Origin: a virus
Length of the DNA: 54,321 nt
UHGV virus genome: UHGV-0135730
Reading direction: 5' to 3' (one strand)
Shown here one piece after another: positions 1 through 8,153 of this stretch. Both the position numbers and the translations under genes were made by a program. How positions within the stretch are numbered: position 1 is the first letter of the stretch; every line of letters begins with the position of its first letter. The notes below the pieces were generated by a model. It saw nothing but the letters and a program-made list of their open reading frames with translations, made no database searches and had not been told where the DNA came from.

Positions 1-361
1 CGTCATTGAGTAGTTTTAATAAGGTTGATGTTTTGAAGTTGGTTGCGCCTACGTTATAGGCGAAGGAATAAAGTGCAGCGCGGGTAAAATCTGATATTTC
101 GACTTTGATATATGGGTCAATCGCTTTTGCGGTTTTGTGCAGATCTTTATTCAATAAAGCATCGCATTCTGATTGCGTGTAAGTCTTACCAAGCATGATG
201 TCTTTTCCGGTGTGACCGTAGCAAACAGTCCATACACCTACAACATCACGATAGGGATCGTGTTCCACGCCCTCTAATGGCTTAATCATCACCGCCGCAA
301 TAGCGATCGCCCCACCAGCCGCCGCCGCAATAATCTTATTCTTCAGCGATTGGCTAATCAT
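1..361 (-). CDS. SAR endolysin (lysozyme), N-terminal segment; continues at 54191-54321
   Basis: ATG at 361; [24 protein letters not shown] signal-anchor then lysozyme-like core ([20 protein letters not shown]); frame continues into window end, resembles P21-type SAR endolysin. Confidence 0.8.
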
Positions 362-362
362 G

Positions 363-563
363 TTACTTATTCCCCATTCGCGCGTCGTGTTCCTCTTGCG
401 CTCGCTTGTTCTCCTGTGATTTAAAGTAATAGTTAACGGCAAATGTGCCTATGGTTGATAAGATACCCACAAAGACGGCAATGTCATTGATGGTTATCGC
501 GCCGAAAAAAGCAGTTACGGCCCCGGTCACATACGCACACGCCTCCCGTATTCTGTCGAACAT
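363..563 (-). CDS. Holin, pinholin-like (class II)
   Basis: 66 aa from MFDR with two hydrophobic helices and charged C-terminus; RBS GGAGG; directly upstream of endolysin. ORF-track N-terminal extension rejected. Confidence 0.65.
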
Positions 564-577
564 AGATTTTCCTCCAA

Positions 578-606
578 CAAAGCAAAAACCCGGCGCGGGG
601 GCCGGG
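578..606 (-). terminator. Rho-independent terminator upstream of holin (tR'-like)
   Basis: Hairpin CCCGGC-GCGGGG-GCCGGG followed on minus strand by TTTTTGCTTTG; 15 nt upstream of holin RBS. Confidence 0.6.
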
Positions 607-634
607 TAGTTACAGTTTCGCATTGTTAGGTAAT

Positions 635-663
635 ATTTTAATCTGTTTGTTTTCGACCCACAA
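635..663 (-). promoter_or_regulatory. Candidate late promoter (PR'-like) upstream of tR'-like terminator
   Basis: TTGTGG-17-TAAAAT on minus strand; weak -35; position inferred by analogy with lambda PR'/tR'. Confidence 0.25.
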
Positions 664-671
664 ATACGGCT

Positions 672-848
672 TTACGCAGTTCTGTATATCAGTCCGTTAT
701 CAAGCAATGTTTGCATGTGTTCGCGATCCATGTCGCTTAATTCCCAATAAGGAACATCTTCATTCCTTATCATCACCTCTTCGCCTCTTACCAAATAGGC
801 GATGTCAAATACCTTATGCAAATAGATGCCATCTTCGATCTCGTTCAT
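672..848 (-). CDS. Hypothetical small protein (58 aa), paralog of 845-1027
   Basis: MNEIEDGIYLHKVFDIAYLVRGEEV...; ATGA overlap with upstream gene; shares IEDG-Y...V.GE pattern with neighbour. Confidence 0.5.
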   Translation of the reverse strand: MNEIEDGIYLHKVFDIAYLVRGEEVMIRNEDVPYWELSDMDREHMQTLLDNGLIYRTA

Positions 849-1027
849 AGGTCGCTAACCTTTACCAGTTCACCAGCATCAAGAAATATTTTAATTGTTT
901 CTCGCGTCGTCTTAATGATTGGCGCTACCCACTCGCCACCGCCAACGCAGATACGAATATCATCGCCTTCTACGCGGTAAAACAGCCTGTCGACTACTGT
1001 TGCTGCGTACACGCCATCTTCAATCAT
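845..1027 (-). CDS. Hypothetical small protein (60 aa), paralog of 672-848
   Basis: Start at internal ATG with AAGGAG RBS; MIEDGVYAATVVDRLFYRVEGDD... Confidence 0.5.
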   Translation of the reverse strand: MIEDGVYAATVVDRLFYRVEGDDIRICVGGGEWVAPIIKTTRETIKIFLDAGELVKVSDL

Positions 1028-1223
1028 TTTTGCGCTCCTTAATGGCTCGCATGATGTTAATACGCATAGCGTCACTGAATGCGTATATCGTAATGAAAGG
1101 CCAGAAGACTAGCTCGAACCAAATAATGCCGTCACTATCAACAGCTTTCTGAAAAGCGCCCATTAAAATGACGCCAGCCAGGTAAATGATAACCGCCGCA
1201 ATAATAAGGCATTCAATCATCAT
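1020..1223 (-). CDS. Hypothetical membrane protein (two predicted TM helices)
   Basis: Hydrophobic segments IIAAVIIYLAGVILMGAF and FELVFWPFITIYAF; start codon uncertain (several ATGs). Confidence 0.45.
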   Translation of the reverse strand: MMIECLIIAAVIIYLAGVILMGAFQKAVDSDGIIWFELVFWPFITIYAFSDAMRINIMRAIKERKND

Positions 1224-1470
1224 CGTCATCGTCCTCATGTTCAGCCAGGAACTCATCAACCACTCTGTAAGTCACTGGCGGGATGTATTCGAAATCATCA
1301 GAATCAAGATCAAGCGTCCGGCTGTCGCCGTCATCGTCCAGCGTATTCATCCCTAATTCACCGAAAGGGCCGTACCCAATGTGGCCCAGGTATTCGCATC
1401 CAGTCGTAAAGCCAGGGTATTCGCCTTTGCACCTGATCTTGTACAGCTTACTTGATGCGCTCAATTTCAA
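1213..1470 (-). CDS. Hypothetical acidic protein
   Basis: 85 aa ORF with poly-Asp N-terminus; operon orientation. Confidence 0.4.
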   Translation of the reverse strand: MKLSASSKLYKIRCKGEYPGFTTGCEYLGHIGYGPFGELGMNTLDDDGDSRTLDLDSDDFEYIPPVTYRVVDEFLAEHEDDDDDD

Positions 1471-1771
1471 TTCCCCCTTCTACCCCTTCAGTCATTTTGT
1501 ATTCCGCAAACAGTTCAGCGCCAAGTAATTCGACATCAGTATCACCAATACCAGGGAACGCCAGATAAGCAAAAATAAGGCTTTTAATTCTATTCGGGTC
1601 TTCAAGATGGTCTGCATTAAAAGGCGGTTCAGTTACATGGAAGCATTTAACGTGCGTGTCGTCTTCAGTGGCTACACGGAAACATGCGCCAGGTTGTCCG
1701 GCGAATTGCCCCAATGTTTCCTTGCTCGGTAAAGTGCCACGAAAAACTTTAACGCTGATAAATTTGTACAT
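1448..1771 (-). CDS. Hypothetical protein
   Basis: 107 aa ORF in same-strand gene train. Confidence 0.45.
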   Translation of the reverse strand: MYKFISVKVFRGTLPSKETLGQFAGQPGACFRVATEDDTHVKCFHVTEPPFNADHLEDPNRIKSLIFAYLAFPGIGDTDVELLGAELFAEYKMTEGVEGGIEIERIK

Positions 1772-1794
1772 TGCTTATTCTCCTTAGTAATAAA

Positions 1795-2094
1795 TTAAAA
1801 TTCAGCACCAGGTAAGCTACGCGCTTTATTTATAACATCTTGTTTTAACAATAATAGTGAGTGATAATGCATGTTAAACATTCTGCAAAGTGGTGTTTCA
1901 CTATTTTCTGACTTAATTTTGAATAACTGGTTTGCAGTAAAAATCATGTCGTCGTCTGTTATGTATAACCAGTCGCCGCGCTTACCAACAACAATATGAG
2001 ATTTTCCCCAGCTATCTTTAAATTCATAATTGCAGAAGACATCACCTTTAGGCACTTCAACGAAACAGCACGCTATGAATTTATCGCTTTTCAT
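1795..2094 (-). CDS. Hypothetical protein (AT-rich)
   Basis: 99 aa ORF; lower GC than flanks. Confidence 0.45.
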   Translation of the reverse strand: MKSDKFIACCFVEVPKGDVFCNYEFKDSWGKSHIVVGKRGDWLYITDDDMIFTANQLFKIKSENSETPLCRMFNMHYHSLLLLKQDVINKARSLPGAEF

Positions 2095-2137
2095 GATTCA
2101 ACCCTTCTGGTTTGATGGGGCCATCCGACCCCGTGCT

Positions 2138-2278
2138 TTATCCTTCTTTGCCTCCTTTGAACCCCAAACACTCCGCGTATTCGTCAATGCTTAATGCTTC
2201 TTCACCTGGTGCCAGCAATTCAAAGTAGCGGGCATATAACTCAAAAACCCATGCCGGATATTTAGCGTTAGCGCTCAT
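2138..2278 (-). CDS. Hypothetical small protein (46 aa)
   Basis: MSANAKYPAWVFELYARYFELLAPGEE...; GGAGG RBS; not in ORF track (short). Confidence 0.4.
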   Translation of the reverse strand: MSANAKYPAWVFELYARYFELLAPGEEALSIDEYAECLGFKGGKEG

Positions 2279-2311
2279 CTTCTTGCCTCCCCTCCGCCTT
2301 TCCGTGGCTTA

Positions 2312-2355
2312 TATATAACAAAATGGCACTGTCGAAACAATGCCATTTCGTATAC
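2312..2355 (-). promoter_or_regulatory. Candidate sigma70 promoter with upstream TACGAAATGGC motif
   Basis: Minus strand GTATACGAAATGGC-A-TTGTTT-17-TATATA; palindromic arms AAATGGCA/TGCCATTT. Confidence 0.4.
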
Positions 2356-2392
2356 TTTGCGAGGTAGATCACATTTATTGGTGAGAACTATA

Positions 2393-2608
2393 TTACCACT
2401 TAACGAAACGCGCCATAACTCGATTGTCAAAGCTGCCCTTAACAACCCCTTTTGCGTGATCTCCGTAAAATTGCCACGCATCGCCATCATTATCTTTTAC
2501 ATAATGAATACCTACAGCGCCGCGCTTGCACCCATTGAGAAGGTCAACGCTATATGACTCACCAACAGTAAAGTGAACAGTGTCAGAGTAAACACATCTT
2601 GCAAACAT
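2393..2608 (-). CDS. Hypothetical protein
   Basis: 71 aa ORF in gene train. Confidence 0.4.
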   Translation of the reverse strand: MFARCVYSDTVHFTVGESYSVDLLNGCKRGAVGIHYVKDNDGDAWQFYGDHAKGVVKGSFDNRVMARFVKW

Positions 2609-2610
2609 AA

Positions 2611-2862
2611 TCAGAAAACCCCTTTATAATCTGCCGTGTATTTTGCAACCAATTTCCATTCACAATAGTTTTCCATGTCGCGCGGTTGCCAGCCTTTCAT
2701 GCCTACAGCACCACGCACGCCGTGGCGACGATAATTATCGTTATAGTCAGCTACGCACCACGGCTGAAGCACAAACATGTAATTGGCCTCGTTAACCAGG
2801 ATCGCCATCTGCTTTCCTGTTGCCTTATCTTTCGCCCGGAAATAACTTACCCTGATTTTCAT
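2611..2862 (-). CDS. Hypothetical protein
   Basis: 83 aa ORF; start may be a downstream ATG (overlap with upstream gene). Confidence 0.4.
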   Translation of the reverse strand: MKIRVSYFRAKDKATGKQMAILVNEANYMFVLQPWCVADYNDNYRRHGVRGAVGMKGWQPRDMENYCEWKLVAKYTADYKGVF

Positions 2863-3073
2863 TTTGATATACCTCTATCAACATTTCTTCCTCAAGGTTG
2901 GCAGGACGTTTACGGAATACCCCGGCAAAAACCAGATCGTCGAGCAAGTCTTTGCTCTTAAATAGCCATTCCTTCATTATTACCCCATCGTCGCTGCGAT
3001 ATACCACGCTGTTTTTCAGAAAATAAAACGTGTGCGTGTTTGTCTGGAGGTACAGATCTTCGTAAACGTCCAT
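2825..3073 (-). CDS. Hypothetical protein
   Basis: 82 aa ORF in gene train. Confidence 0.4.
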   Translation of the reverse strand: MDVYEDLYLQTNTHTFYFLKNSVVYRSDDGVIMKEWLFKSKDLLDDLVFAGVFRKRPANLEEEMLIEVYQNENQGKLFPGER

Positions 3074-3077
3074 GATG

Positions 3078-3305
3078 TTAACCCTCGACTACTTCCAGCC
3101 CGCGCCCCTTGTCGCCAACGAAGTCCCCCAGGCTGAACGTATACGACCATGCCGGATTAATGTAATGGTCATCAGCGCCAGCGGCTATCAGGTCAGCACC
3201 GTTAATCATGCAAGTGACATTATCACTATGCACAACTTTAACGACCTTACCAACAACCTGTTTCAGTGACGGATAACCGTGATCGTGCAAGAATTTTACT
3301 TTCAC
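3078..3305 (-). CDS. Hypothetical protein
   Basis: 75 aa ORF, tightly spaced. Confidence 0.4.
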   Translation of the reverse strand: MKVKFLHDHGYPSLKQVVGKVVKVVHSDNVTCMINGADLIAAGADDHYINPAWSYTFSLGDFVGDKGRGLEVVEG

Positions 3306-3580
3306 TCTTCTGCCTCCCAGCGCTCAATACTGATTAAAAAGTCCCGGATAGCGTGGCGCTCGTCGCGCGTTGGTTTGCGTTTCCGGTAGATCCTGAAATC
3401 GAACCATTCTTTTTCCTGCTCAAAATCCAGGTCGTAAGCAAGCGCCTCAATGTATCCGCATTCGTGATACCAGTACGCAACGCCAGCACGAACAAAAAAG
3501 CGGGTTTTATCCCGCTTGTGCTCATAGATACGCATATTCACCCCGTTATGCTGTTGTGTAGCTGTCAACCAGTTTTTCAT
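3302..3580 (-). CDS. Hypothetical protein
   Basis: 92 aa ORF, 4-nt overlap with next gene. Confidence 0.4.
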   Translation of the reverse strand: MKNWLTATQQHNGVNMRIYEHKRDKTRFFVRAGVAYWYHECGYIEALAYDLDFEQEKEWFDFRIYRKRKPTRDERHAIRDFLISIERWEAEE

Positions 3581-3776
3581 CTTTCATTCTGGCAAGCTGT
3601 GCGATGTTCATCGTGTAGCCGCCATCAGCGAAAAGCAATTCCGCCGCAGCGCGACGGAAAGCAATATCATCATGGTTACGTGTCCATGTAGCGATCACAA
3701 CGCGTTTCCCGTTAGTGGCGAACATAGACAATTCGTTATCAACAACGTCGATAGCACACCAGATTTTTAGCTCCAT
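3546..3776 (-). CDS. Hypothetical protein
   Basis: 76 aa ORF. Confidence 0.35.
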   Translation of the reverse strand: MELKIWCAIDVVDNELSMFATNGKRVVIATWTRNHDDIAFRRAAAELLFADGGYTMNIAQLARMKDEKLVDSYTTA

Positions 3777-4132
3777 GACTTATCCCCGTAGATCTTGAAT
3801 AGTTCGCGCTCTTCCTGGTCTTCAACTATCCCTATATGCAGATCACGCAGGCGGCGCATTGTGCGGAATCGTGGCCTGAACTCCTGGCTGCGTTTAATGT
3901 ACTTACCGCCAATTGAGTAAATGTGTCCGTATGAGTACCATCTATTCCCTACCCATATTTCATATTCCTTTCCTTCGTAATTGAATTTTATCGTTAGCTC
4001 TCCGACTTCAACTATTAACCCTTTGTCAATAATGTCGTTAAGCATTTCATCCCATTCTTTTAGAAATGGTTGTTGATAAAAACCAAAAATCGTATTAACA
4101 GCGTGACAGAGATAATCAATGATTATTTGCAT
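3767..4132 (-). CDS. Hypothetical protein (AT-rich)
   Basis: 121 aa ORF. Confidence 0.45.
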   Translation of the reverse strand: MQIIIDYLCHAVNTIFGFYQQPFLKEWDEMLNDIIDKGLIVEVGELTIKFNYEGKEYEIWVGNRWYSYGHIYSIGGKYIKRSQEFRPRFRTMRRLRDLHIGIVEDQEERELFKIYGDKSWS

Positions 4133-4136
4133 ATTA

Positions 4137-4352
4137 TCACCACATCATATAATAAACGTTGTCGTTAGCTACTTCGTCAGCTTGTTCTTGTGTTAATAGC
4201 GGTGCGCTTTCCATAAAAGCATCAGAGTAATGCCATTCATAAACAAGCATTCGCGCCCATTTACGGCGCTGGCGCTTATTGCGACGCAGATCATCAAAAG
4301 CCTTTAATGCTTTGTCATACGCCCTTACCAGGCGCTTACGGTTACTTTTCAT
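4137..4352 (-). CDS. Hypothetical basic protein
   Basis: 71 aa ORF, Arg/Lys-rich. Confidence 0.4.
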   Translation of the reverse strand: MKSNRKRLVRAYDKALKAFDDLRRNKRQRRKWARMLVYEWHYSDAFMESAPLLTQEQADEVANDNVYYMMW

Positions 4353-4654
4353 TTTTCACCTCTTAGCATCCAATTCACATCGCATTTAATTGCGAATACC
4401 TTAACAGGATCAGGGCCGAACAATGGATGTATGATTGTTTTCACTTCATAGCCAAAATAAGGTAGGTCTATAATCCGGTGTTTTTCGTGTCCTGCCGGAT
4501 AACCCCATTTAATGAACAAACGTTCATACTCCCGACCTTCCAGGCGCTTGCGCCAGTAGTCATTATAAAGCCGGTATTCCTCCACCTTCTTTCCCGCACG
4601 GATAGCGTGGAAGTATTCTCCTTTTAAATTCAAATGCAGGTGTTTACTTGCCAT
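4349..4654 (-). CDS. ASCH-domain-like protein
   Basis: GxKxxExR-type motif (IRAGKKVEEYR) typical of ASCH/PUA-like fold; start at MASKHL. Confidence 0.45.
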   Translation of the reverse strand: MASKHLHLNLKGEYFHAIRAGKKVEEYRLYNDYWRKRLEGREYERLFIKWGYPAGHEKHRIIDLPYFGYEVKTIIHPLFGPDPVKVFAIKCDVNWMLRGEK

Positions 4655-4913
4655 CGCTATGATCCTGTAAACAGTCGTTATAGCCTTCAATGTATCCAGT
4701 TAACCCAGTGTTGCTAACAGACCAGTCAGCCGAACGGCGCTTGATGGCCTTGTCTATAGTCATTTCATCGCCCTGGCCGCCTGGCTCAATGTATTTTCTC
4801 AAATCCCTTGCTATCCATTCCCTTAGCTGTTGCGTATCACTGAGCACACGCGCCGTCAGTGTCAGTTCGTTAACCAGCTTTGCAAATAGATGTTCTTTTA
4901 ATTTAGGCTTCAT
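4644..4913 (-). CDS. Hypothetical protein
   Basis: 89 aa ORF. Confidence 0.4.
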   Translation of the reverse strand: MKPKLKEHLFAKLVNELTLTARVLSDTQQLREWIARDLRKYIEPGGQGDEMTIDKAIKRRSADWSVSNTGLTGYIEGYNDCLQDHSDGK

Positions 4914-5103
4914 CTTTCACCTCGCGACGATAGATATTTACTGGCTTAACCGGGATGGCGTTAAAATCCCCTTCATCCAGTGCGGCAATAAACGTTAGCG
5001 CCAACCGTGCTTCAACACCGCTTAAATACTTGCACCATGCCTCACCGTTATGATCTTCAAAAAGAATAACCACTTTTTTCATGTTTATTTCTTGTTGTTC
5101 CAT
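4903..5103 (-). CDS. Hypothetical protein
   Basis: 66 aa ORF immediately downstream of Q. Confidence 0.4.
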   Translation of the reverse strand: MEQQEINMKKVVILFEDHNGEAWCKYLSGVEARLALTFIAALDEGDFNAIPVKPVNIYRREVKDEA

Positions 5104-5831
5104 TATTCACCCCGTGTCACTCGTTTAATTTCGTTATCAGCCCGCGCCTCTTCTTTGAACAATTCAGCAATGGCGTCTTCATAGAAAGCACGGTATTTCT
5201 TCCACCATGTTGATCGGCTTACCGGAAAAACAAGCTGATTAACCGCCTGTCGGACAAGATCTACAGGGAAACGCGAGTACCCGCGCCCGCCGCAGTGCTG
5301 GCACGTTTTGAACACTGGCATTTCCGCCGCTTCACTGGCTGCTTTATCCGGTACTTCGCCACGACCCTTGCACCGCTGGCAATGGTTTTTAACGTAGCCT
5401 TTGCCGCCGCACCGCGAGCAAACTGTCGATGCGTACTCACAATATGGATGTGGTGAAAGCCCGTTACCGCCGCACTTAGGGCAAACTTTTTCGGTCGCTG
5501 CACTCTGGCAATAATCCCGAAACGCGAAAACGGCAACAAGAATAATGAGATCATTGCGTTTGGCCTCGTCCAGTTCCATAACGTATTCATATTCTTTTGC
5601 CATAGCTCTTAAACGCTCTGTAAGCAAAACTACGGCCTTATGTTTTTCGGCTTGTGATAGTTCCATCTTTCCCAAAAAAGCGCTATAGCCAAGCTCTACG
5701 CGCGATTGCGCCATACCTGCGGCAGTTAGTGCATCCGTAGTATTAAGCGCATCCGGGGACGTGCCCCGGCTTTCATCTGATAAACGCGGTGATTTTGGGA
5801 AGTGGAATTTGAGAATAGATTCCAGATTCAT
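5103..5831 (-). CDS. Q: Late-gene antiterminator Q (lambda Q family)
   Basis: MNLESILKFHFPKSPRLSDESRGTSPD closely parallels lambda Q N-terminus; multiple CxxC zinc-binding motifs. Confidence 0.85.
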   Translation of the reverse strand: MNLESILKFHFPKSPRLSDESRGTSPDALNTTDALTAAGMAQSRVELGYSAFLGKMELSQAEKHKAVVLLTERLRAMAKEYEYVMELDEAKRNDLIILVAVFAFRDYCQSAATEKVCPKCGGNGLSPHPYCEYASTVCSRCGGKGYVKNHCQRCKGRGEVPDKAASEAAEMPVFKTCQHCGGRGYSRFPVDLVRQAVNQLVFPVSRSTWWKKYRAFYEDAIAELFKEEARADNEIKRVTRGE

Positions 5832-6013
5832 TACTTGCCCCCGTAACGCGCAACAAGTCTTTTGCGATCAGATATTGCCTGCACCAACTTTCTTTCAAGC
5901 TCTTTAAGTGCAAGCAATTCTCGCATGTGGAAAGCCTGTATTTGTCGCACAGTCTCTAAATCATGCTCATCGCGCTGAATATCTATTTGCAGATCTTTAA
6001 TTTCGTTTTTCAT
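5831..6013 (-). CDS. Hypothetical coiled-coil protein
   Basis: 60 aa ORF between RusA and Q. Confidence 0.4.
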   Translation of the reverse strand: MKNEIKDLQIDIQRDEHDLETVRQIQAFHMRELLALKELERKLVQAISDRKRLVARYGGK

Positions 6014-6016
6014 TTG

Positions 6017-6418
6017 TCACCCCCACATATTAGTTTCGTATTCACCAATATCCGGTAACAGGTCGCCGCGTTCGCGTACCTTAATAAACAATCGCCCGCC
6101 TTTTACCTTCCGGCAGCGAACAATTTTTATTGAGTCAATTTGCCCGTCATCCATCCAGAATCCGGCATAAGTAAGGCTGTCAAAAAGGCATTTAGGGATA
6201 TTATCCAGATCTCTGATCCGGTTATCCGGCGGCGCGGCGTAAATGGCAATTGCCAGTCGGCAAGGTAGGTTAATATTTAAATTTAATAGCTCGATGATGT
6301 CTCTTACTTGTTCCCTGTATTCCTTCCCTACTTTGCTGATATAATGAAAACCGCGCGAATGTCGGTAATAGCGATTATTCGATGGCGGGTAAGGCAGGCT
6401 AAAAGAATATTCATTCAT
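6017..6418 (-). CDS. rusA: Holliday junction resolvase RusA
   Basis: 133 aa, RusA-like size and conserved acidic residues; nin-region context. Confidence 0.7.
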   Translation of the reverse strand: MNEYSFSLPYPPSNNRYYRHSRGFHYISKVGKEYREQVRDIIELLNLNINLPCRLAIAIYAAPPDNRIRDLDNIPKCLFDSLTYAGFWMDDGQIDSIKIVRCRKVKGGRLFIKVRERGDLLPDIGEYETNMWG

Positions 6419-7020
6419 GCCGCCTTTCTCCTTAAGGCGTCCAATTTAGCCTGATAGACTTTTATGATTTCCTTACATTCTTCTATCGTCCATTTGTGAG
6501 TTTCGTTGTTGTTCTCCAGCGCTACCACCCTGGCGAGGCCAATTTTTCGAATCAGTGCCGGGCGATACCCTCCGATGTTGCCGTCTAGTGTCTGGTTGCA
6601 GTGCCTGCATTGTTTATGGCAATTATCCTCGTTAAAGCGAAGATGTCCGGCGGCGGCTACCGTCCTGTAATGGCCCGCATCCCACCCGCATTGCTCACCG
6701 TAGTAAGTACCGCAAGATATACACGGCAAGCGCGCGTCACGTTCGCGAATATAGGCGTTAAATACATTTTGAACTTGTTTGATCCAATAACTACGCGGAT
6801 TTAACTGCTTCCGCTTCCGGTTGCGCTCTTCCCGCTGGCGGTCGCGGCGTTTCTTCCGCTCCATAGCCTTCATAGCCTTCTCACGGTCGCGGCATAGCTG
6901 ATCAAATTTCAGCTCTTCCAGACACTCATCACTGCACCACGTTTGATTATGGTATTTAGGCTCAAAAAAAACGCCGCAGCATTTGCAACGGCGTTTTATG
7001 GGTTTTTTAGGGTTCTGCAT
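6415..7020 (-). CDS. ninG: NinG (Rap) recombination protein
   Basis: RSYWIKQVQNVFNAYIRERDARLPCISCGT...WDAGHYRTVAAAGHLRFNE..NCHKQC matches lambda NinG; ATG at 7020. Confidence 0.85.
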   Translation of the reverse strand: MQNPKKPIKRRCKCCGVFFEPKYHNQTWCSDECLEELKFDQLCRDREKAMKAMERKKRRDRQREERNRKRKQLNPRSYWIKQVQNVFNAYIRERDARLPCISCGTYYGEQCGWDAGHYRTVAAAGHLRFNEDNCHKQCRHCNQTLDGNIGGYRPALIRKIGLARVVALENNNETHKWTIEECKEIIKVYQAKLDALRRKAA

Positions 7021-7034
7021 AAAAACCACCCCGA

Positions 7035-7211
7035 TTATTTTTGATTCTCTGTTTCGTTCAGCCTTTCGGCGTGTCCGGCCCTTAGCCAATGATCTAAACA
7101 TTCGTTGCACTCGTTACAGCCTCCTTTCTTTGTGCTGCATACATTGCACATTGCACGCATGACGCTTTCTCGTTCATAGTCGTCATGCCATTGGTAATTA
7201 TCAAAAGACAT
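7035..7211 (-). CDS. Hypothetical Cys-rich small protein (58 aa)
   Basis: Strong AGGAGGG RBS; CNVC...CNECNEC motifs suggest zinc ribbon. Confidence 0.5.
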   Translation of the reverse strand: MSFDNYQWHDDYERESVMRAMCNVCSTKKGGCNECNECLDHWLRAGHAERLNETENQK

Positions 7212-7291
7212 AATGCTCCCTCCTTTTCAGGTGATTTATACGCATTTCAGCGCTGCCGGATTTTTAAAGAGCATTTTGTTTGCTTGAAGTA

Positions 7292-7366
7292 TACAAAATG
7301 GATACATGCAAACAAGACAAAAAGCGCCATTATGTGATCCGCATCACGCAATGACGCCATTTTGTA
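7292..7366. promoter_or_regulatory. Intergenic regulatory region: divergent TACAAAATGG motifs flanking palindrome TGTGATCCGCATCACG
   Basis: TACAAAATGG at 7292-7301 (+) and 7357-7366 (-); TGTGA-N6-TCACG palindrome at 7333-7348. Confidence 0.45.
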
Positions 7367-7370
7367 AACT

Positions 7371-8153
7371 TCAGTCCGGTAAAACGCGGTTGAGCGTAGT
7401 ACGATTGATGGCCCGGTCGTTAGCCATAAATACAGCACGGGCAAAGCCGCGCGGCGTTAGTGAGCGGATCATCTTTGTTCGTTTCGTCCGGCCTCCAGTT
7501 TTAGCCCACCCTGGGTTATCACCAGAATTAAGATCTACAGCCCTGAAAAGCGGCCGTTTGAATCCGTTGCCGCACCATATGCAAGTTTTCTTCGTGTAAG
7601 CGTCGCGCGGCGGGTAAACATCCGGGAAAGCAGGATGCTTGTCGTCTTCCGGCAGGTAGCCACCGTAAGCGCACGGATTGAAGATAAAATCCGGTTTACG
7701 CCATAGCGTTGACAGTGCTCCCACCGGATTTTCCACCATCCACGGCACGTTATACATATTCGCCAGTTTTTCTACCAATTTTGCGTTATACGCCGCCTTT
7801 ACCTGGAAGTCAGGATCTTCTTTTCGCTTGTCAGCGAACCAGCGAGCGCCAGACACGGCGAGATTGTCGCATGGCGGGAAGCCCAGGATAATATCAGGCT
7901 CCGGGTAAACTGATAATTCAGGCGAGAACATCACCAGGAAGTGACTGTCAATCCACACGTTAACGTATTCAATATTCGGGTGAATGATTTTAACGCCTTC
8001 ATAATCGCCGTGATTTGCGCCGTCATAGTTGAAGCAATAGCATTTATATCCTGCTTCCGCCCAGTCTTTAACGGCGTACCCGCTGCCGTCGTACAGCGAC
8101 CACACAACCCAGTTTCTTAGCCAGTTATTTAACCAGTGTTTAGCCTTGCTCAT
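7371..8153 (-). CDS. DNA cytosine-C5 methyltransferase-like protein (divergent)
   Basis: Order of motifs resembles C5-MTases: YDGSGY (motif I-like), GFPPCDNLAVSGA (motif IV-like, PCD in place of PCQ), ENPVG (motif VI-like). Confidence 0.35.
   Translation of the reverse strand: MSKAKHWLNNWLRNWVVWSLYDGSGYAVKDWAEAGYKCYCFNYDGANHGDYEGVKIIHPNIEYVNVWIDSHFLVMFSPELSVYPEPDIILGFPPCDNLAVSGARWFADKRKEDPDFQVKAAYNAKLVEKLANMYNVPWMVENPVGALSTLWRKPDFIFNPCAYGGYLPEDDKHPAFPDVYPPRDAYTKKTCIWCGNGFKRPLFRAVDLNSGDNPGWAKTGGRTKRTKMIRSLTPRGFARAVFMANDRAINRTTLNRVLPD

Follow-up and report, generated by a model that had tools for sequence, protein, structure and literature searches.

In textbook and structural accounts of lambda-type late gene control, the Q gene and the promoter PR', its pause, and its terminator form one adjacent cassette. 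In lambda, the Q-binding element (QBE) is located between the -35 and -10 hexamers of PR'. It is a 13-bp site with contacts at positions 1-4 and 11-13 (PMC9388147). In the Shiga toxin (Stx) phages, which carry Q, PR', tR', tRNA genes, stx, other morons, and S in this order, the cargo comes after PR'/tR' and is Q dependent (PMC6266700, PMC7547250). The mEpimmI phages are a published group of Nus-dependent, non-lambdoid temperate coliphages of the gut (PMC11893012). Here, we analyzed a 54,321-bp stretch of viral DNA (UHGV-0135730; hereafter, the window), a complete, circularly permuted genome of a member of the mEpimmI (mEp021-like) coliphage group, in which the gene for a lambda-family Q antiterminator is separated by 4.5 kb of small genes from a terminator and the lysis genes. 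We consider it likely that this locus carries a lambda-type Q switch, whose cis-acting module was split from Q by a mosaic region of early genes and has come to move along with the lysis cassette.

The locus shares with the lambda and P22 cassette the homology of Q, a -10 hexamer followed after 6-7 nt by AACxxT, a terminator tens of nucleotides further on, and lysis genes that come next. It departs from that cassette in the distance between Q and the cis module (4.5 kb here and 2.0-6.8 kb across the group), in a weak and variable -35 hexamer, and in two additional CXXCXGXG zinc knuckles in Q; moreover, the promoter, the pause, and the binding of Q are only predicted here. The leader RNA is predicted to be ~45 nt long as compared to 194 nt in lambda. 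Like the Stx phages, the window has several kilobases of accessory genes between Q and the holin gene, but here they lie upstream of the candidate PR' and are translationally coupled to Q, and no tRNA genes were found in positions 1-8000. The interval also resembles the lambda nin region, which lies between P and Q and depends on N, as both are tight runs of small mosaic genes with stop/start overlaps. In addition, both would belong to an early-right transcript, which here has a nut site and homologs of NinF, NinG, and RusA ahead of the interval. In contrast to the nin region, however, the interval follows Q, includes five genes that are universal in the group, and contains no homolog of a named nin gene. 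There is no difference in kind from the mEpimmI phages, the window being a member of the group. The part of the published mEpimmI account that was accessible describes the early system of Gp17 and nut sites and mentions a Q-like protein, and neither the position of the late promoter nor its separation from Q is discussed in that part (PMC11893012). Judged by this portion of the literature, the probable split would be a mild, undescribed rearrangement of the lambda late switch in a published phage group.

Seven records matched positions 1-7200 of the window with ~89-91% nucleotide identity and conserved gene order; the best six were the related phage MagusPhagus and the described group members mEp044, mEp010, mEp554, mEp013, and mEp515, and the seventh was mEp021. 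Q, the small genes, the candidate PR', the terminator, and the lysis genes are all on the minus strand (Table 1), and the endolysin gene is divided over the two window ends. The comparative set consisted of 45 IMG/VR loci, chosen by homology of Q and independently of any motif, together with seven GenBank phages. Positions relative to the holin gene were counted in the 51 genomes that reach it, column conservation was assessed on the 34 unique sequences present among 52 genomes, and the prevalence of genes between Q and holin was counted over 50 relatives.

Q and the sequence block before the holin gene

The original prediction had placed Q at 5103-5831, and this was borne out. The protein matched the Pfam family PF03589, which corresponds to the Q-lambda family (PMC9388147), with 109.9 bits (cut-off 26.7; E = 7e-32). 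BLASTP aligned it with lambda Q over its full length (residues 1-240 versus 1-207, 35% identity, E = 2e-47). Within this alignment, 25 of the 44 residues of the N-terminal segment are identical by manual count; in lambda Q, this segment forms a torus that prevents hairpins from folding (PMC9388147). The cysteines of the zinc-ribbon arm are also kept, and comparison with relatives revealed strong purifying selection, with a ratio of nonsynonymous to synonymous substitution rates (dN/dS) of 0.07. Compared with lambda Q, the arm carries an insertion of 33 amino acids (window 5340-5480, minus strand), which adds two CXXCXGXG motifs to give four in total. These motifs are DnaJ-like and probably form two zinc sites. 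In lambda Q, the zinc-ribbon arm is the part that touches the QBE and sigma region 4.

Gene S, the last of the small genes, is separated from the holin gene by a spacer of 108 nt that contains TTGTGG, 17 nt, TAAAAT, ATTACCT, AACAAT, and, 15 nt further on, the terminator. The candidate -10 hexamer TAAAAT matches the consensus at five of six positions and is invariant in the group. AACAAT begins 7 nt past it and is, at the sequence level, in register with the AACGAT of lambda, P22, and HK225. The putative Q-binding element in the promoter spacer consists of an invariant AAACAA and an invariant GAT, with three variable nucleotides between them. In this layout, transcription would start at ~627-628, and the polymerase would be expected to pause at ~612-611 (~+16/17). 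Of the two arrangements considered in the original prediction, that of a PR' moved next to the lysis genes (663-635), rated there as a weak candidate, gained more support than it had been credited with, from the lambda register of AACAAT, from the presence of a conserved 74-nt module in every relative, and from its being the sole such site between Q and holin. The other, that Q acts at a distance, does not constitute a separate mechanism, since a diffusible Q would bind the block in trans.

The strong terminator that had been noted just upstream of holin (578-606) was confirmed at 607-579. It consists of a 7-bp stem, ACCCGGC/GCCGGGT (607-601/594-588), a 6-nt loop (600-595), and the T-tract TTTTTGCTTT (588-579), and it ends 16 nt ahead of the holin ATG. 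The latter, at 563, is the true holin start, matching the annotation of mEp021 and MagusPhagus. The leader folds with -21.6 kcal/mol (z = -4.3), and a terminator is annotated at the matching site in five relatives, namely mEp021 (TERM_5, score 100), mEp010, mEp013, mEp044, and mEp515. The published mEp021 work lists t1, t2, and t5 among the experimentally demonstrated terminators (PMC11893012); we assume, from the matching GenBank numbering, that the published t5 is the terminator before holin. The predicted leader RNA would measure ~45 nt, and the tR' hairpin would begin at ~+21, just past the expected pause at +16/17.

A similar layout recurs across the late promoters of other lambda-Q-family phages and consists of a -10 hexamer, 6-7 nt, and AAC(G/A)(A/G)T. 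Lambda and P22 both carry TAAATT-TGACTC-AACGAT, and in the P22 record (P22-pbi), transcription is annotated to begin with the first A of AACGAT, over which the qut site is also annotated. HK225 and the lambdoid L103, whose Q is 41% identical, have the AACGAT layout just downstream of Q. The phage with the closest outside Q, Bp96115 (38% identity), carries TATCAT-AACCCT-AACAGT at the canonical position after Q. In the window, the corresponding sequence, TAAAAT-ATTACCT-AACAAT, is found 4.5 kb from Q. The P22 terminator, which is annotated at +31 to +59, provides a precedent for a terminator near PR'.

In all 51 genomes, the block preceded the holin ATG by a constant distance, and the stretch from the Q stop codon to holin varied from 2004 to 6802 nt; Q and holin were never adjacent. 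A prophage with a 71%-identical Q showed the same arrangement, with 26 genes between Q and holin. Across the unique sequences, AAACAA, GATTAAAATA, AACAATGC, the -10 hexamer, AACAAT, the terminator stem, and the T-tract were invariant, while the -35 region, the few bases right before AACAAT, and the terminator loop varied. The conservation of the block starts only at ~-27. Three genomes carry divergent holins: two have an allele with 57% amino acid identity, and the prophage mentioned above has one at 63% nucleotide identity. In these three genomes, the 74-nt block is 88-91% identical, as compared to 63-67% for the holin gene and 55-64% for the upstream 150 nt (nucleotide identity). Because its identity exceeds that of both flanks, the block is a separately conserved module with recombination joints on either side. 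The near-perfect co-occurrence of the block and Q in IMG/VR was not used as evidence, as common descent would yield the same result.

Several observations weigh against a lambda-type promoter at this site. The -35 hexamer TTGTGG matches the consensus at only three of six positions, and the promoter was hence unlisted by a consensus scan. Furthermore, conservation is lacking in the -35 region, which comes in three mutually unrelated versions, and 12 of the 51 genomes have no recognizable -35 (TCGCGC). The bare motif of a -10 followed by AACRRT is not above chance, with five occurrences in the window versus 2.6 +/- 1.6 in shuffled sequences. Because the lysis region has diverged little in the core group (holin synonymous divergence of 0.12), the argument from conservation leans mainly on the three genomes with divergent holins. 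The constraint on AACAATGCGAAAC could instead stem from pairing with the terminator U-tract. Last, promoter activity, pausing, Q binding, and the transcript start at the block are predictions from the DNA sequence only.

The predicted leader begins with 13 nt (AACAAUGCGAAAC) that can pair with the U-tract of the terminator (GUUUUUGCUUUGUU), which lengthens the hairpin. The Stx-phage PR' is the source of a small RNA, StxS (PMC7547250), and by analogy, a ~45-nt RNA made constitutively in lysogens could also be a small RNA. Two further readings of the leader were discarded. A boxB- or nut-like hairpin, ACAAT-GCGAA-ATTGT, can form in those genomes that have a T at the variable position, but the window has a C there and one relative a G, which disrupts the pair, and no compensating change was found. 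If AACAAT itself served as an alternative -10, the start would fall inside the terminator.

Sequence after Q and predicted timing of the small genes

The stop codon of Q overlaps the ATG of the next gene (TGATG), and this overlap is kept in all genomes compared. Among 53 related genomes, at least four unrelated types of sequence come next, with Q followed by either of two versions of gene A, by gene B directly, or by gene F directly, although the Q proteins are at least 85% identical. Thus, there is neither space nor conserved sequence for qut beside Q. Consistent with this, no lambda-type -10 followed by AACRRT was found on the coding strand from 5103 to 672. The candidate PR' lies 4.46 kb downstream of Q and not immediately after it as in the canonical cassette.

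The mEp021 genes from gp16/gp17 through to the lysis genes all share one strand, and the series is punctuated by TERM_1 to TERM_5. The N-like protein Gp17 is reported to act at nutL, nutR1, and nutR2, the last of which is located downstream of the methyltransferase gene (PMC11893012). In the window, a boxA-like TGCTCTTTAAAAA with an A-rich-loop hairpin is found at ~7270-7240 (minus strand), just ahead of the genes for NinF, NinG, RusA, and Q. This site is probably the nutR2 known from mEp021. A long hairpin followed by TTTTTGTCTT, which resembles t4, precedes the boxA-like element in the region 7240-7350 (minus strand). Downstream of Q, the small genes have overlapping or near-abutting stops and starts, and all of them lie upstream of the candidate PR'. 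This coupling to Q, together with the position upstream of PR', suggests that the small genes are part of the early-right operon and are delayed-early, Gp17 dependent, and Q independent. By analogy, they would most likely be delayed-early genes similar to a nin region placed after Q rather than late cargo of the Stx type. The original prediction had assigned them to the slot in which Stx and other conversion genes are found. That comparison holds for the map position only, since the interval lies upstream of the sole PR' candidate and not downstream of PR'/tR'. Two convincing terminator-like hairpins with T-tracts are located inside core genes F and G (3659-3639 and 3517-3498, minus strand), which suggests that the region is read only by polymerase modified for antitermination.

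In the arrangement that we favor, Q and the 19 small genes would form the distal end of a long rightward early operon, read by Gp17-modified polymerase via the nut sites. The cis half of the switch, comprising PR', the Q-binding element, AACAAT, and tR', would lie 4.5 kb downstream, before holin. Without Q, polymerase starting at PR' would stop after the ~45-nt leader. With Q supplied in trans, the polymerase would be modified while paused at ~+16 and would then proceed past tR', and this read-through would lead to the expression of holin, endolysin, spanin, packaging, and structural genes. If this is correct, the cis module belongs with the lysis genes rather than with Q, as an autonomous and portable unit that Q has to reach in trans. 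A place between Q and holin would then be no predictor of timing, as the intervening genes would be early and Q independent, unlike those of the Stx phages, which is relevant for the annotation of "cargo" in prophages. The mEp021 system, in which early antitermination has already been studied, would gain a concrete candidate for its late switch.

Alternative readings of the block

The position of Q relative to the lysis genes could also be read as an Stx-like layout, in which PR' and qut are located within the first small open reading frames (ORFs) after Q, the small genes are Q-dependent late cargo, and the terminator before holin is internal and ignored by Q-modified polymerase. This is the arrangement of every characterized Q cassette (PMC9388147) and of the Stx phages (PMC6266700), and the hairpins inside genes F and G would be tolerated by a Q-modified polymerase. 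However, an ATG overlaps the Q stop codon in all genomes, unrelated sequences follow Q although the Q proteins are at least 85% identical, and the coding strand between Q and the end of gene S is free of the lambda-type motif. This layout also leaves no role for the conserved promoter-like block before holin, and we regard it as highly improbable. Somewhat less remote, yet still unlikely, is a locus with no late promoter at all. In lambda, polymerase modified by N reads through into the late genes at a low level. By the same logic, the block could simply be t5, which ends the early-right operon, with the late genes reached by Gp17-dependent read-through and Q either dispensable or acting elsewhere. 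The terminator is indeed the best-supported element of the block and is apparently listed among the terminators tested in the Gp17 work (PMC11893012), and the lack of a conserved -35 agrees with this reading. In contrast, neither the strong selection on Q nor the retention of its torus segment would be expected of a dispensable protein. Invariant sequence begins ~45 nt ahead of the hairpin, and this stretch contains a good -10 as well as AACAAT in the lambda register. In addition, the genome was found to contain no second copy of the block on which Q could act (first 34 nt as query, three mismatches allowed).

The late start of conservation within the block, at ~-27, and the replacement of the -35 region by unrelated sequence in many genomes would be explained if the block were a promoter-less loading site for Q, composed of the Q-binding element, a sigma-dependent pause, and the terminator. 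Polymerase arriving along the 13-kb early operon would pause there with sigma-70, take up Q, and continue into the late genes. There is a biochemical precedent, as the Q protein of phage 82 engages a promoter-distal paused complex in vitro; however, NusA antagonized Q at this promoter-distal position (PMC4914094). Furthermore, Gp17-modified polymerase should resist pausing if it behaves as expected from the N paradigm, and a good -10 correctly spaced from the pause element reads most simply as a promoter. We therefore judge such a loading site to be very improbable. If it did exist, it would represent a natural case of promoter-distal Q engagement and would explain why the -35 region is freely replaced. 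In a milder version, Q would act strictly in trans because of the split cassette, and these phages would offer a natural test of the preference for acting in cis that lambda Q reportedly shows. A lambda-type Q switch with a cis module separated from Q remains our preferred reading of the locus.

Genes between Q and the terminator

The original prediction had described the interval as about 20 packed ORFans. We found 19 tightly packed genes under purifying selection (dN/dS of 0.05-0.27 versus relatives), so the packing and approximate number stood; however, 17 of the 19 fall into PHROG families, each of them listed with "unknown function", five genes are core, and a noncoding gap of 114 nt interrupts the series. 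A twentieth frame, ORF L (2275-2490), has a dN/dS of 1.16 and no PHROG match and is probably spurious. In contrast to the five core genes (F-J), the other 14 are present in 21-48 of the 50 relatives.

Table 1. Features of the late-switch region and of the Q-holin interval, in window coordinates. Prevalence is given as the number of relatives out of 50 that carry the gene. Core genes F-J have dN/dS of 0.06-0.15; genes L' to S (672-2278) are flexible, with a prevalence of 31-45/50 and dN/dS of 0.06-0.27.
Feature	Position	Strand	Description
Q antiterminator	5103-5831	-	lambda-Q family, 242 aa; Pfam PF03589 Antiterm and BLASTP to lambda Q
Gene A	4903-5103	-	66 aa; phrog_35000; 43/50; flexible; dN/dS 0.22; ATG overlaps Q stop
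Gene B	4644-4913	-	89 aa; phrog_29262; 42/50; flexible
Gene C	4349-4654	-	101 aa from internal ATG; phrog_625; 36/50; flexible; ASCH/DUF3850-like PUA fold (weak)
Gene D	4137-4352	-	71 aa, basic; phrog_8758; 45/50; flexible
Gene E	3767-4132	-	121 aa; phrog_16975; 48/50; nearly core
Gene F	3546-3776	-	core, 50/50
Gene G	3302-3535	-	core, 50/50
Gene H	3078-3305	-	core, 50/50
Gene I	2825-3073	-	core, 50/50
Gene J	2611-2862	-	core, 50/50
Gene K	2393-2608	-	71 aa; phrog_31142; 21/50; flexible
Noncoding gap	2279-2392	-	114 nt; sole sizeable gap in the interval, after discounting ORF 2275-2490
Gene L'	2138-2278	-	PHROG match
Gene M	1795-2094	-	no PHROG match
Gene N	1448-1771	-	PHROG match
Gene O	1213-1470	-	PHROG match
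Gene P	1020-1259	-	PHROG match
Gene R	845-1027	-	PHROG match
Gene S	672-848	-	PHROG match
Candidate PR'	635-663	-	-35 TTGTGG 663-658, 17-nt spacer, -10 TAAAAT 640-635; from sequence
Candidate Q-binding element	641-652	-	AAACAAACAGAT in promoter spacer; suggested by position only
Candidate -10-like sigma-dependent pause element	622-627	-	AACAAT; lambda/P22-like layout; invariant in group
Intrinsic terminator tR' (mEp021 TERM_5/t5)	579-607	-	hairpin and T-tract
Class II holin	363-563	-	66 aa; PF16080, E 3.8e-14; ribosome-binding site GGAGG 575-571; first lysis gene
Endolysin	361-2 then 54319-54191	-	aa 1-120 at 361-2, aa 122-164 at 54319-54191; after holin
Spanin	54203-53733	-	after endolysin

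Pfam and NCBIfam gave a functional match for none of the 19 genes. Sequence searches of the Protein Data Bank (PDB) with genes C, E, N, and M returned nothing significant, and Rfam and tRNA scans of positions 1-8000 detected no tRNA genes or known RNA families. The remote-homology and structure searches that had been proposed along with the original prediction yielded a weak ASCH assignment for gene C and no function for the others. The source records of gene C homologs carry the names "ASCH domain-containing" or "RNA-binding protein". Its AlphaFold model has a mean confidence score (pLDDT) of 87.6, and the top 14 PDB fold matches were all ASCH proteins, albeit weak ones (E of 0.03-0.7). Gene C is the only gene of the interval to which a fold could be assigned.

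Among the core genes, the families of F, G, and J group with genes from L102 as well, a distant relative with a 45%-identical Q. The model of gene H (pLDDT of 91) shows a small SH3/KOW-like barrel, for which the fold matches were only generic small barrels and uncharacterized phage proteins. Gene I had three matches among 1.84 billion representative proteins and is thus nearly confined to this phage lineage. It is a homolog of mEp021 gp41, which is annotated as "virion structural protein", though located in the expected early operon. R and S are tandem paralogs that both belong to phrog_15318. The gap between K and L' contains a hairpin, AATGGCA-N12-TGCCATT, followed by TTGTT (TTGTTATATATAAG), and ARNold-predicted terminators are found in relatives near the homologous place. 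This element could act as an internal terminator, a promoter, or both at a mosaic joint.

The interval fits an early accessory, host-takeover region, while a role as an anti-defense island, which had been suggested in the original prediction, is unproven. Pfam and NCBIfam searches, which did not include a dedicated anti-defense library, matched none of the window proteins to a known anti-defense protein. Among the ~39 gene families found between Q and holin in 55 genomes, the only meaningful Pfam matches were Lar and PAPS_reduct, both in relatives, and these are the only hints of such a role. The Lar restriction-alleviation gene is located directly after Q in one distant relative (L102, 9188-9415), and the PAPS-reductase-like gene is present in four genomes (for example, L100, 14058-14813).

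Downstream of the lysis genes, a second occurrence of a late-promoter-like motif, TAAAAT-N6-AACGGT at 53512, was judged coincidental; it overlaps a hairpin at the map position of mEp021 TERM_6. This conserved hairpin, AAACGG-N12-CCGTTT followed by TCAGTGTTTTAT, is found after spanin at ~53450-53520 (minus strand), where a simple terminator scan called none. It would act as a terminator within the late operon, before the packaging genes.

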